From the NCBI GenBank assembly GCA_951406725.2, contig OX597839.1:15934001-15998000 (forward strand): 64,000 nt of DNA, written 5' to 3'. This document shows positions 20,775-59,742 of the stretch, one piece after another. The notes below the pieces were generated by a model that saw nothing but the letters and a program-made list of their open reading frames with translations, ran no database searches and was not told where the DNA came from. The position numbers and the translations under genes were made by a program. The DNA is from Octopus vulgaris. Lineage: Eukaryota. Each line of letters begins with the position of its first letter. Position 1 is the stretch's first letter.

Positions 20775-22264
20775 TTATACATGTTGCTGGTTAACAAAAT
20801 GTAGATTGAAATCATTCTTGTCCGCACACACTTTGTGACATATGCTACACTCCCATGGATTGTACGCCCCATGCAGTGAATTGTGCAGGAAGTACATGCC
20901 TCGCTCCTGAAAAATAATCCCGCAATGGCTGCACTTGTAAATCTTACCCTGGGACATGTAGTAGGCTAAGGTATCTTCCAGTAAAGGCACGCCGTCGATT
21001 GGGGTCGCGAATTGCGTTGCAACATCCTTTGTCGATTTCCTCGGTGTGATTGCAACAGAGAAACCACCCGACGAGGATGGCTCCAGCTCCTGGGACTTCT
21101 GGATCAGGTTCTGGAGCATGGAGAGCATCTCTGACAGGCTGCTCGTCGAGTCGGCAATGTTGCTGGGTATGAGGTCGCGTGGTGATGGCACAGTGTAACA
21201 CCGATTTGAGACAGGCTGGTCGGGAGTAGCCGGCACTTCTACCACCTGCATCATCTCGTCAATGGTCGTCGACGCAAGAGCCGGATGTGGAGGACTGCTG
21301 CTCCGGTGATTGCTTGTGTTGTCCAGCCTGGATACAGTCAAACGGCATGCAGCCTCCGACGTCACACCACTCGAACTGCCATTGCTGCTGTTGCCATTGT
21401 TACTGTACTGCTTCTGCTGGTTTTCTACAAAACAGCGCTCATTATTTGAGACACTGATACCAACTGGAAATACTGGTTGTGAATCATATGATGGTGAAGG
21501 CTGTTCTTGTTTAATAGTGGCTCCTCCGACAACACTGTCATTGGAAGGCGTCGTGCTGTTACTGCGACTAGCAAGCTGTGAGCAGATATTGTCTATCTTG
21601 CGCATAGATTCCGTCTCAGTGCTCAGCTGCAAGTTGTAAGAGAGGACACTGTCTATGCCTGAACCACCACTGCTGTTATCGTTTGCCGAGCAGGTGGACA
21701 CAATCGACAGACTGCCTGCCGTACTATCTCCACCCGCAAGATCAACCCGGTTTTTGTCTCGTGTATCATAATACTGAGGTGGATGAGCTTCAAAAATGTG
21801 CGCATTCAGTGATGTTTGATTGCTAGCTGCGTAATTACAAATACTGCACTGCAATGCTTCGCCTTGACAGGTGAGCAGGTGGCGCTGCAACTGGACTTCT
21901 TTGTCGAATCGTCTGTTGCACATTCGACAGCAATACGGCTTCCTGTGTATCAGACGATGCTGCACCAGATTGGAGCGAGCAGCAAATTTTTTGTCGCAGA
22001 GGTTGCAAGCATAAGGCTTAATACCAAAGTGAATGTTCTGGTGTTCCAGTAAGATATTCTTATAGCCGAATCGACGGTGACATATGTCACACTGAAATGG
22101 ACGTTCTTTATCATGGGTGAGGCGTACATGTCGAATAAGACCATTTTTATAACCAAAAGCTTTACCACATATAGAACATTTATAATTTTCACCATCTTTT
22201 TCAAATGAAATTTGGCTACCGGCGGCAGTGCTGAGGCTAACAGGTGATGCAACATGATCCACAG
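20775..22264 (-). CDS. Terminal coding exon of a C2H2 zinc-finger transcription factor with Ikaros/Hunchback-type C-terminal finger pair
   Basis: 495-codon open frame. Five N-terminal fingers (CSICGKAF..H..H; CDIC; CNLC; CRMC..HLLTC; CSIC) and C-terminal YKCSHCGIIFQERGMYFLHNSLHGAYNPWECSICHKVCADKNDFNLHFVNQQH. Strong acceptor (pyrimidine tract TTTGCAG, AG at 22266-22265), phase 1, so the GTG 'start' is not the true start. Stop TAA at 20777-20775. Confidence 0.93.
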
Positions 22265-22305
22265 CTGCAAACAGAAAAAAAAAGAAAGAAAAAAAAAATT
22301 ATTAT

Positions 22306-44188: not shown

Positions 44189-44991
44189 TGATTACAAGTG
44201 TTTTATTTTTCAATAGGAATCACAAAGATTTACATGTTCGATAGACATGTAAGGAATTTCCTATTAGAGAAATCATCAGACGGAGAAAGAGAATATTTTT
44301 TAATAATATAATGATACAATATTATTTAATAGTATAATGATATAATATTATTATAGTATTAGGAAAAATTTCTCTTTTTGGCAATTTCTCTCATAAGAAA
44401 CTCCTTATATGTCTATCTAACTTGTAAATCTTTGTGATCCCTGTTAGAAAATGAAACATGTGTAATGGTGAATAAATAATACCTAACAATTTCCATTTTT
44501 CCTTTTTTGATTATTCAACAACTCTGCAAATAATGTTTACATATATATATATGTATGTATGTGTGTGTGTATATATATATATACAGTTAATCCAAACATG
44601 AAAATACAAAGAGAAAACACAACAACGCGAGGACGTGGAACAAGTATAGTGTTATTGGACGCTCAGAAAAGGAAAGAAAGGAGGGTTTAACGTTTCAAGC
44701 AGAGCTCTTCATCAGAAACATAGGAAAAGGAAAGATCCAAGGAAGGGAAGATAGAGGGAAAAAAAAATCGCCAACGGTACACATGCAGTCACACACACAC
44801 ACACACATATATATATGTGTGTGTGTGTGTATAAATGGACTGCTGAAGTCTACACGTTTTTTTCATTCCCTTTCTATTTATTTCCTCTTACTTCTTTCTG
44901 TCGAAGAAGCGTAGGCTCCATTTTCCCCAAGTGTCAAACTAATACACTTGCTTGTTGTTCCTACACCTGTCTTTTGTTTTTCTATAAATTT

Positions 44992-45098
<107 letters not shown>

Positions 45099-45149
45099 CT
45101 ATATATATATATATAAACTATATATATATATAAACTATATATATATATA

Positions 45150-45199
<50 letters not shown>

Positions 45200-45346
45200 T
45201 ATCGCCATACTAATATGGCATTCTTATAAAAATAAGAAAAAAGCTGTCCGCTTATTAGCTCCATGAGGCCATCGCCTTAAGTTAGCTATTTGATACACAA
45301 ACTGTATCCATATAACCTTCGAACAAGGGAGATCAGTCGCTCCACA

Positions 45347-45417
45347 CTACTTGACCGGCAGCTACAGACGCGTTTCGGGGTATTGCCCCTTTTCAATGCA
45401 GCGTAGCCAGCCAGTAG
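45347..45417 (-). ncRNA. Type I hammerhead ribozyme, copy 1
   Basis: Minus RNA: GCUGCA-UUGAAAA-GGGG-CAAUA-CCCC-GAAA-CGCG-UC^UGUAGC, with extended stem I UGGCUGGC/GCCGGUCA and CUAC/GUAG. Predicted cut between 45367 and 45366. Confidence 0.8.
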
Positions 45418-45708
45418 GTGTCGCTTCTGGCAATCTCTGTTCGATGGTTTTATTTACCTAGTTTCGGTGGAATACATCCACTTGTTTTCAATAATAGAAA
45501 TATTAAAATTACTAAGTCTCTCTAAAAGAGAACAGCAGCAGCGTTCCCGGAAAATAATAGTTATCGCCATACTAATATGGCATTCTTATAAAAATAAGAA
45601 AAAAGCTGTCCGCTTATTAGCTCCATGAGGCCATCGCCTTAAGTTAGCTATTTGATACACAAACTGTATCCATATAACCTTCGAACAAGGGAGGTCAGTC
45701 GCTCCACA

Positions 45709-45779
45709 CTACTTGACCGGCAGCTACAGACGCGTTTCGGGGTATTGCCCCTTTTCAATGCAGCGTAGCCAGCCAGTAG
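45709..45779 (-). ncRNA. Type I hammerhead ribozyme, copy 2
   Basis: Identical to copy 1. Predicted cut between 45729 and 45728. Confidence 0.8.
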
Positions 45780-46362
45780 GTGTCGCTTCTGACAATCTCT
45801 GTTCGATGGTTTTATTTACCTAGTTTCGGTGGAATACATCCACTTGTTTTCAATAATAGAAATATTAAAATTACTAAGTCTCTCTAAAAGAGAACAGCGG
45901 CAGCGTTCCCGGAAAATAATAGTTATCGCCATACTAATATGGCATTCTTATAAAAATAAGAACAAAGCTGTCCGCTTATTAGCTCCATGAGGCCATCGCC
46001 TTAAGTTAGCTATTTGATACACAAACTGTATCCATATAACCTTCGAACATTAGAATCCTTATTGGATAAAAAGAAAAATTGTTTTCCCCAAATAACAGAC
46101 TTAAAAAATGAATTTGCTTCATACAATTCAGGAAGTTATTTTTATTCGCGAAATGTAAAATAAGTGAAAAATAAACTTCCTAGTAATACACTTATTCCAC
46201 AGTTTACACCGATTTCAACAACATACGGGTGATAAATCATTTAACAAGTTGGTAAGCAGGGATGAGCAAAATGATTATGTAACATCTATATATATATACA
46301 TATATATATCGACATATCTACGTATTTATCTATCTATCCATCACTCTGTCTCTTTATATACA

Positions 46363-57234: not shown

Positions 57235-59742
57235 TGGGCAGGAAAAACTGACAGGGTTGGAGGCGTGGGTATACGTCTCGCTGAAAAACTGGTAGATAAG
57301 GTACTTGAGGTAATCAGAGTAAGTGACAGAATACTTAAGATTAGAATAGTGCTTCATCATAGATTAGCAACCATTATATCGGCCTATGCCCCTCAGCCAG
57401 GGCTACCCGATTGACAGAAAGACAGTTTCTATGACACCCTACTGCAGACCACCTCATTGACGAATGACAGGGACCTTCTCTTTGTAGCTGGTGACTTCAA
57501 TGGGCATGTTGGACGACATGCTGGGGGCTTCCATGGCGTACATGGAGGCTACGGTTATGGTTCCCGCAACGAGGAGGGAACCAGGCTGCTGGAGTTCTGC
57601 GATGCGAATAGTCTTAAGGTTTGCAACACTAACTTCAGGAAACCGACAAGCCACTTGGTCATCTACCGATCGGGCCGGCATACTAGCCAAATCGACTACA
57701 TCCTTGCCAGAAAAAGGGAAAGATGGCTGCTTATAAATGCCAAAACCTTCCCAGGCGAAGAATGTATCCCACAACATAGACTGGTAGTTAGTGACTTTAG
57801 GATCAGGACTAAGAGGACGACTAGAAGACGACCAACATGGAGAAGAAGGGTCTGGAAGCTTAAAGACCCTGCGAATGGACAGAGATTTAGAGACATGTTA
57901 CTTGAAGCCTTTGACGAAATAGAAGGGGGTATAGCTACACATGGGGTAGAAGACAACTGGACGCTTCGGAGGGACAACCTGCTGAAAGCCACTGACCAGA
58001 TCTGTGGCTGGTGCAAAGTCCCCTCAAGACCCAAAATAACGTGGTGGTGGAACAATACTGTTGACAGGGCTATTAGACAAAAGAAACAGGCTTGGAAGGA
58101 CTGGAAGAACGGTGGTAGCAGGGAAGTGTATCAGACTGCCATAAGGGAAGCTAGGAGGCAGGTGTATTTAGCCAGAGGGGAAGCAGATAAGAAAAAATTT
58201 GCCAATGTCCTGTGCCGTGAGGATGAAAGACTTGAGGTATTTCGTGTTGCAAGACAGTGTGTGAGAGAGAATCATGACGTGGTAGGAGAAAAATGTGTTC
58301 GCAAGGATGACGGTTCACTTGCGCTAAATGAGGATACAAAGAGAGAGGTATGGAGAAGCCACTATGAAAGGTTGCTGAATGAGGAAAATGAATGGGATAA
58401 AGAGAGTCTGCCGAATGTTGACCCAACAGAGGGACCAGCAATCCGAGTTGAGAGTTCTGTGGTAGTTAAGGCAATTACAAGCATGAAAACAGGGAAAGCC
58501 CCAGGCCCATCAGGAATTACTGCAGAGATGCTCAAAATATCTGGTAGTGTCGGCTATAGCCTAGTCACCCGTATAGTTAACCAGGTGATACACGAAGGAG
58601 TCATTCCCAATGACTGGTGTAGCAGCATAATAGTCTGCTACAAAGGTAAAGGTGACGGCCTAGATACAAATAACTACAGGGGTATCAAGCTGCTGGATCA
58701 GGTAATGAAGGTTACGGAGAGGGTTATAGTCCAACTAATTAGAGAGAGAGTTAGCTTAGATCAGATGCAGTTTGGGTTCGTGCCAGGGAAAAGTACTACT
58801 GATGCTATATTCCTGGTAAGACAGCTGCAGGAAAAATACCTAGCCAAAGATAAGCCCGTGTACCTGGCTTTTGTTGTCATGGAGAAAGCCTTCGACAGGG
58901 TCCCCCGATCCCTTATCTGGTGGTCAATGAGGAAACTAGGGATAGATGAATGGTTAGTGAGAGCTGTGCGAGCCATGTACAGAGATGCTGCTAGTAAGGT
59001 AAGGGTTGGCAATGAGTACAGTGAAGAATTCAGGGTAGAGGTTGGGGTCCACCAAGGTTCAGTCCTCAGTCTCCTCCTATTTATCATAGTCCTCCAGGCA
59101 ATAACGGAGGAATTCAAGACAGGATGCCCCTGGGAGCTCCTCTATGCTGATGACCTTGCTCTAATTGCTGAGTCTCTATCAGAACTGGAGGAGAAGTTTC
59201 AGGTGTGGAAGCAAGGATTAGAATCGAAGGGCCTTAGAATCAACCTAGCCAAAACCAAAGTCCTAATAAGTAGGAAGGTAGACCAATCACAAACGCCTTC
59301 AGGTAGATGGCCCTGCTCGATCTGTAAAAAAGGTGTAGGTAGAAACTCTATAAGATGCACCAAGTGTAAGCTATGGACACATAAGAGGTGCAGCAATGTC
59401 AAAGGAAGGCTAACTAGGAAAATAGTTTTTGTCTGTGGCAGATGCTCAGGAGCAATAAACACTGGAAATGTGCAGAGACCAACTTCCACCACGTTCCAGG
59501 GTTGTGGTATGCAAGAGAGACGTTTGCGCTGGTATGGTCATGTGACGAGAATGGCTGAAGATAGTTGTGTGCAAAAGTGCCACACCCTAGCAGTTGAGGG
59601 AACCTGTGGAAGAGGTAGACCCAGGAAAACCTGGGACGAGGTGGTGAAGTACGACCTTCGCACTTTAGGTCTCACCAAGGAAATGACCAGAGACCGAGAC
59701 CTATGGAAGTATGCTGTGCGTGAGAAGACCCGGCAAGACTAG
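57235..59742 (+). pseudogene. APE endonuclease-reverse transcriptase ORF, inactivated
   Basis: APE motifs SAYAPQ, GDFNGH, QIDY, QHRLV. RT motifs KAPGPSGI, NYRGIKLL, QFGF, GVHQGS, YADD (59143-59154). In-frame stop at 57412-57414, FVVMEKAFD instead of FVD, thumb segment deleted. Confidence 0.92.

Follow-up and report, generated by a model that had tools for sequence, protein, structure and literature searches.

A tandem element with two hammerhead motifs

On the minus strand of the window (the whole 64,000-nt stretch of Octopus vulgaris DNA that was analyzed, to which all plain positions refer), 45361..45402 reads as a type I hammerhead motif of 42 bases, in the order stem I, UUGAAAA, stem II, GAA, ACGCGU, C17, and stem I. 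A second, identical copy at 45764-45723 lies 362 nt from the first, and both are part of a short tandem insertion with the following features.

44996..45188, no strand: (TA)n microsatellite adjoining the element at its 3′ end, the insertion target of the family (from sequence and mapped ends)
45189..46049, minus: whole insertion, 861 nt, 2.4 head-to-tail units, 99% match (from sequence)
45353..45412, minus: whole downstream hammerhead, including the extended stem I and the UAC/U internal loop (from sequence, fold, and covariation)
45402-45397 paired with 45366-45361, minus: stem I of the downstream copy (from sequence)
45390..45396, minus: core strand UUGAAAA, with U3 at 45396 and A8 at 45391 (from sequence and the 3/8 counts)
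45377..45389, minus: stem II, GGGG/CCCC, 4 bp, with loop CAAUA at 45385-45381 (from covariation)
45368..45373, minus: stem III, the self-complementary hexamer ACGCGU, predicted to form six pairs in a dimer and one in a monomer (from sequence, fold, and covariation)
45367, minus: C17 (from sequence)
45715..45774, minus: upstream hammerhead, identical copy, with the predicted cut between 45729 and 45728 (from sequence)
45367..45728, minus: 362-nt monomer expected from two cuts (prediction)
45489..45499, minus: second fixed site of family 3′ ends, located about 60 nt beyond the first, with 53 of the 125 mapped 3′ ends

In the downstream copy, the cut is predicted between 45367 (C17) and 45366. 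The predicted fold extends stem I past an internal loop, in which UAC (45405-45403) lies opposite a single U (45360), by seven further pairs. Sequence and covariation together give the attributes of a type I hammerhead: a three-way junction, the conserved core, a Watson-Crick 3-8 pair, A15.1-U16.1, and H17. The motif with its UUGAAAA core, which a preliminary description had reported without naming a strand, is therefore real, lies on the minus strand, and is present in two identical copies. The expectation that standard hammerhead searches would overlook it was also borne out. Rfam cmscan returned 0 matches in the whole 64-kb window at the gathering threshold, and a hammerhead was among none of the 27 matches in 44600-46100 at E <= 10. 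This result probably reflects a limit of the models for variant cores and is not a matter of definition.

The insertion has its 3′ end at 45189 and is 5′-truncated at 46049, which falls in a hot spot of the family. As a circle, the 362-nt monomer has a predicted folding energy of -114.4 kcal/mol (z = -6.1 relative to 100 dinucleotide shuffles). No long ORF is found in the 362-bp unit, and no tRNA was found in 45000-46300; hence, there is no sign of a tRNA-derived SINE head. Elsewhere in the window, Pfam identifies a C2H2 zinc-finger array frame at 20778-22298 (minus strand) and a LINE-type reverse transcriptase frame at 57415-59739 (plus strand). Near the element, what appears to be the end of an older Penelope-like element (PLE) contains, at 44689-44715 on the minus strand, a minimal hammerhead-like motif of the canonical C3-G8 type whose palindrome is AACGUU.

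A young family of non-coding tandem repeats

The exact 30-nt core is present in 892 copies in the 2.8-Gb genome, which is rich in TA repeats, and its reversed control in 0, so the motif is not due to chance. With a looser core pattern, 1893 matches were obtained versus 69 for the control; among the first 100 listed, 95 are U3-A8, 3 C3-A8, 2 U3-G8, and 0 C3-G8, as read by eye. The best copies of the family to which the window element belongs (family A) are 98-100% identical and are spread over many contigs, which indicates a young family, and the genome holds about a thousand near-identical family insertions. Related tandem families with units of 353-364 bp align with the window family via short common motifs; between families A and B, there is only weak likeness outside a few such motifs. 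Larger arrays of 7 to 9 or more units also exist. Taken as a whole, the family has the makeup of a non-LTR retrozyme, in that many copies exist of a short tandem unit that is non-coding and carries a single type I hammerhead.

Core positions 3 and 8

The two changes in the core had been interpreted as preserving the tertiary pair between positions 3 and 8. Applying one scaffold pattern to the whole genome, we found 1391 cores with U3-A8, 37 with C3-G8, 7 with C3-A8, and 2 with U3-G8. These counts, which span sister families, support the interpretation, and the amplified subfamilies that were seen all have a Watson-Crick 3-8 pair, with no mixed state amplified. The support is weaker than the counts suggest, as the copies are not independent. 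The 37 C3-G8 cores, at 17 loci, are mutually identical, and in a tree in which 53 of 80 rows were kept, the C3-G8 copies form one clade (100/100) nested among the U3-A8 rows, with the six mixed rows scattered. Because the C3-G8 copies are a single clade, one switch event is represented and not many independent ones. Support for the nesting is moderate (82/97 and 80/94), with a long-branch warning at the root. The 37 copies stem from a single switch, probably a reversion from U3-A8 to C3-G8; the two subfamilies are about 90% alike. The covariation check across genomic copies that had been proposed thus gives a divided answer: stems I, II, and III covary and positions 3 and 8 are paired, but the 3-8 switch is single. 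The implied newness of the U3-A8 core does not hold, since natural U3-A8 hammerheads have already been published (PMC3088659, PMC4209133).

A search for C3-G8 in family A itself gave 55 matches, none with the family A stem II. Another pattern yielded 3152 C3-G8 matches; because many of these are copies of a single repeat in which no stem II is evident, the total was not taken as a hammerhead count. In the first 100 rows of that list, most matches come from an abundant dispersed repeat with a palindromic AGGCCU and no recognizable stem II. At one place (G000:C28:20675573 and 20675835), cores with C3-A8 and with C3-G8 lie 260 bp apart in opposite orientation, facing each other, and their loops II differ in length. 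This pair is possibly a mixed-template insertion or an intermediate.

Covariation of the stems and the loop contact

In 17 variants, hand-picked to span the subfamilies, 92.7% of 357 cells are paired compared with 31-50% in slid controls. Both sides have changed in 15 of the 21 pairs (13 of 17 in stems I and II); the shuffle control takes no account of relatedness. In stem III, the middle of the palindrome alternates between CG and GC, and the hexamer stays palindromic. Moreover, the U3-A8 pattern with four G/C bases in stem III has 8155 matches in the genome (control 190), from several families. Of the first 100 listed, 99 have a palindromic middle by eye, of three kinds, although the pattern allows 16 middles, 12 of which are non-palindromic. 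The palindromic nature of ACGCGU, pointed out in the preliminary description, is thus kept across the variants despite the CG/GC swap.

Loop II is invariant in its first three bases and its 3′ A in all 17 aligned variants, and so are the C that ends the stem I loop and the U facing it. This C, the U opposite it, and the A at the 3′ end of loop II correspond to the bases named for the loop contact in the Schistosoma hammerhead (excerpts of PMC2632901). This agreement favors the idea that loop II and the UAC bulge are placed for a tertiary contact.

Insertion anatomy and Penelope-like elements

Junctions were mapped at 97 loci, 30 retrieved by full-unit match and 67 by a motif downstream of the cut, and were de-duplicated by junction. 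Among the 3′ ends, 110 of 125 are located at two sites about 60 nt apart, and 103 of these 110 are at TATATA. In contrast to these fixed 3′ ends, the 5′ ends are variable, and 99 of 129 are arranged head-to-head with an inverted arm. Most insertions are under two units long. The sister families likewise have 3′ ends at two sites. For PLE insertions, 5′ truncation, partial tandems, inverted arms, tails, and a microsatellite bias have been described (PMC8557442, in part). The insertions studied here have 5′ truncation, partial tandems, an inverted 5′ arm, and a microsatellite target, as a non-autonomous PLE insertion would. The described PLE tail is 30-40 bp, whereas the second 3′ end here lies about 60 nt out and is thus longer (PMC8557442, in part).

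The genome also carries autonomous PLEs. A young, Neptune-like family has many intact 753-aa frames (L037:1093-4070, L079-L108, L122, L123) with an RVT_1 match in Pfam and, by eye, GIY-YIG-type and CxxC-linker motifs; all 144 scored candidates matched, many at 99-100% identity. Its U3-A8 hammerhead motif has an extra A in stem III, which makes the N17 register ambiguous. The protein of a second autonomous family (L112-L114) is 56-57% identical to that of the young family. Both families have U3-A8 hammerhead motifs, inverted pairs, and (TA)n ends. The L112-L114 elements, together with an abundant related repeat end (L117), carry minimal U3-A8 hammerheads with an ACCGGU palindrome and dominate the first 100 of the 8155 matches mentioned above. 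No DNA similarity was found between the family A unit and PLE UTRs in nine loci, which comprised the two autonomous families and other hammerhead-bearing repeats; the PLE partner is accordingly inferred and not found.

In the loci read, no PLE ORF is contiguous with the repeat except at L037:4730-6816, where a family insertion is joined through its inverted arm, at a short microhomology, with the 3′ end of a different element. The latter is likely a PLE endonuclease fragment followed by a 3′ UTR, a minimal hammerhead remnant, and a TA end. The endonuclease label comes from motifs seen by eye; the fragment had no match in Pfam and none by BLASTP against the neighboring PLE protein. The fusion could have arisen by a template switch or by a later deletion.

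5′ ends near the predicted cut

In unit numbering, the predicted cut falls between positions 184 and 185. Positions 185-192, which are +1 to +8 relative to the cut, hold 3 of 45 5′ ends in one set (0.77 expected) and 10 of 84 in the other (2.65 expected), giving a pooled 13 of 129 versus 3.4 expected (p = 4e-5), where the expected counts are exposure-corrected for locus selection and some copies share ancestry. Upstream of the cut, there is one 5′ end in the 8 nt of 177-184 and two in 165-184. Six 5′ ends at position 187 have different flanks, and a start at this position would fit run-off at 185 followed by joining at TA microhomology. The excess just downstream of C17 is likely a footprint of in vivo cleavage. 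Against this, most arm passages cross the cut site, and 152 reach position 178. The sister families have no matching excess (3 of 66 5′ ends from C17 to +8), in a sample biased against finding one because the loci were chosen by the core itself.

A larger peak of 5′ ends, unrelated to the cut, is located at unit positions 220-228 (21 of 129), and five ends are at 306. Positions 220-228 correspond to 45331-45323, and the 5′ end of the window element itself (46049) is in the same hot spot. The hot spot sits at and just after a short motif common to families A and B. It might mark an internal start of transcription or a point where reverse transcriptase stalls on entering the long terminal stem.

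Collectively, we lean toward the view that the genome records hammerhead cleavage in vivo, jointly with a natural reversion from U3-A8 to C3-G8. Insertions would preferentially start after C17 with Penelope-type junctions, the cut retrozyme RNA being the template of a PLE reverse transcriptase. If true, the junctions would be direct evidence of cut retrozyme RNA templating a PLE reverse transcriptase.

RNA contigs and a putative editing signature

None of the data sets listed as containing the unit is on record as RNA. Contigs from seven putative RNA runs and one likely DNA run cover the unit and are uninformative with respect to ends, strand, and level; contig ends at 45362 were not counted as evidence. 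One putative RNA run (X5) stands apart, with T>C accounting for 22 of its listed changed places. Its contig on 45257-45444 has 27 differences over 188 bases, at least 18 of which are T>C, i.e., A>G on the hammerhead strand, and the changes include core A6, A9, and A15.1 of the minus strand. This single contig, which carries another organism label, likely reflects hyper-editing (A-to-I) of the hammerhead strand, and such changes would disable the ribozyme. The inverted arms would supply the double strand for editing.

Monomer or dimer

Stem III can form only A15.1-U16.1 in cis in the monomer, and the predicted probability of this pair is 0.0000 in eight of eight fragments. For two separate strands, folding favors the double hammerhead, in which the palindromes of two copies pair, both with 60-mers (-55.7 vs 2 x -23.7) and with 115-mers, where it is optimal (-107.7 vs 2 x -50.8). 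On a single transcript, the outcome varies with the fragment ends, which rules out the double hammerhead as a general optimum. It is optimal in two of eight fragments, of 423 and 482 nt (P 0.99 and 0.96). In the remaining six, it is less favorable than the optimum by 2.8 to 17.3 kcal/mol; in the whole 861-nt element, the difference is 12.7 kcal/mol. In sister families, a short two-copy fragment folds as a double hammerhead in two of three cases. Since the double form is optimal only in some contexts, these predictions suggest that the dimer is plausible but competes with cis hairpins. The earlier proposal that the two tandem copies act as a double hammerhead thus agrees with the two-strand folds and the 423- and 482-nt fragments and disagrees with the fold of the whole element. 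Its implied newness does not stand, as dimer cleavage through a palindromic stem III is already in print (excerpts of PMC4209133).

With one pair of stem III available to a monomer, cutting probably depends on two copies pairing their palindromes. Alternatively, cleavage may take place chiefly in the monomer, where the one-pair stem III would be held by the loop-loop contact together with a long stem I in cis, and the palindrome would be secondary. The full 861-nt transcript, with a probability of 1.0 for cis stem I in one calculation and of 0.94-1.0 for cis stems I and II in another, is in keeping with this, as are the invariant loop-contact bases and the cutting of coral and mussel retrozyme monomers during transcription (PMC7229834, in part). 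This reading, however, has to accommodate the zero probability of A15.1-U16.1 in cis and a palindrome that was kept through base swaps, for which a monomer has no need. Moreover, a hammerhead from axolotl that has a single pair and a palindromic tetraloop cut to 6% as a monomer and much more as a dimer (PMC7229834, in part). We therefore regard cutting mainly by the monomer as unlikely.

Proposed mechanism and alternatives

We consider it likely, as judged from the DNA, that the motif is a hammerhead ribozyme, probably active, in a young non-coding tandem non-LTR retrozyme that is likely mobilized by PLE enzymes. Multimeric transcripts would be cut after C17 by a ribozyme in which U3-A8 replaces C3-G8 and the stem I internal loop may dock on loop II in a Schistosoma-like manner. 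For cutting, two copies would pair their stem III palindromes, and the competing cis hairpin likely makes cutting slow or partial. The product would be unit-length RNA, either linear or re-ligated to a circle. Nicked (TA)n would prime a PLE reverse transcriptase, which would copy this RNA from one or the other of two internal UA-rich sites. The 5′ ends at +3 to +8 would be accounted for by run-off at the cut end, and the tandem arrays by a circle or an uncut multimer as template.

Two other explanations have to be weighed against this model. The motif might be a dead relic, with U3-A8 fixed by a founder effect and hitch-hiking while the repeat was amplified by other means. Conservation within family A is hardly informative, its copies being about 99% identical, and eight of nine predicted frog retrozyme dimers did not cut in vitro (excerpts of bioRxiv 10.64898/2026.07.22.740005); both points are in line with a relic. 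A relic would not explain why families A and B, which are only weakly alike outside a few motifs, have both retained the core, paired stems, and loop-contact bases, why one sublineage switched both position 3 and position 8 with no mixed state amplified, or why the 5′ ends step at the predicted cut. A relic is, in our judgment, highly improbable. The other explanation concerns the mode of spread and accepts the repeat as a left-over PLE terminal repeat, the tandem units being local satellite-type amplification and not retrotransposition of its own RNA. Such a route has been discussed for vertebrate retrozymes (in the same preprint, in part), and the arrays of 7 to 9 or more units speak for it. 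Yet copies are dispersed over many contigs and are mostly under two units, their 3′ ends are fixed at two sites in (TA)n, the 5′ ends vary, inverted arms are present, and apart from the L037 fusion, no PLE ORF is contiguous in the loci read. Satellite-type amplification is likewise highly improbable, and an active retrozyme mobilized by PLE enzymes is the preferred reading.

Both the exchanged core pair and the proposed dimer have precedents, which makes the 42-base motif by itself unremarkable to a specialist; more deserving of attention are the junction map and the natural 3-8 reversion. The 2020 papers left open how animal retrozymes return to the genome, and the 2026 preprint calls this unresolved (PMC7229834, PMC7761336, and bioRxiv 10.64898/2026.07.22.740005, each in part). 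The near-identical insertions, mappable junctions, active-looking PLEs, and U3-A8/C3-G8 sister forms in this genome make re-entry a testable question. In addition, the natural U3-A8 and C3-G8 subfamilies are a ready-made pair for a 3-8 exchange in an element that spread. Searches restricted to CUGANGA or to Rfam would undercount the hammerheads of this genome by thousands.

Comparison with known systems

Natural U3-A8 cores, palindromic stems III, dimer cleavage, and retrozymes as non-autonomous PLEs have all been published. In the literature searched (few subscription papers, preprint supplements outside it), no description of the window retrozyme family was found, nor any counterpart to the PLE anatomy of retrozyme insertions with 5′ ends by the cut. 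From pLTR homology and co-occurrence, chiefly in vertebrates, the 2026 preprint (excerpts of bioRxiv 10.64898/2026.07.22.740005) describes retrozymes as non-autonomous PLE derivatives. That work and ours share the interpretation of PLE-dependent tandem hammerhead repeats; here, pLTR homology was not found in the nine loci compared and insertion junctions were mapped. The text of the preprint does not contain the terms octopus, cephalopod, mollus-, core, or cleavage site.

Metazoan non-LTR retrozymes are tandem non-coding units of 150-450 bp, with 350-390 bp in mussel (Cervera & de la Pena 2020, PMC7229834; PMC7761336; both in part). The octopus family resembles them in having one type I hammerhead per unit, a GC content under 50%, a self-paired predicted circle, and PLEs in the same genome. 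It differs in its majority U3-A8 core with one C3-G8 sublineage; no U3-A8 retrozyme was found in the excerpts of these two papers. The same excerpts leave the mobilizer open, whereas the insertion ends here are of PLE type.

Perreault et al. 2011 reported natural 3-8 covariation, cited U3-A8 as active in vitro, and described palindromic weak stems III in repeat-type hammerheads (PMC3088659, in part). Their "several examples" of U3-A8 compare with 8155 pattern matches (control 190) in one genome here. The full-length Schistosoma mansoni hammerhead (PMC2632901, in part) likewise has a stem I loop ending in UAC, a facing U, and a loop II running from C to a 3′ A, and subfamily A3 of the present repeats shares its six-base loop II. 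In the window element, the internal loop is smaller (3x1 vs 4x4), loop II has five bases, the core is U3-A8, and the contact is predicted.

A precedent for the core is found in the Schistosoma Cercyon PLEs (PMC4209133, in part), whose U3-A8 minimal hammerheads (about 1,300 hits) have a palindromic stem III and a proposed dimer cleavage. The core swap and the palindromic stem III are thus the same in both. The Cercyon motifs, however, are minimal, with a long helix II and an ill-defined loop 1, and are linked to coding PLEs, whereas the octopus element combines canonical 6-bp and 4-bp helices and loop-contact bases with an ORF-less unit.
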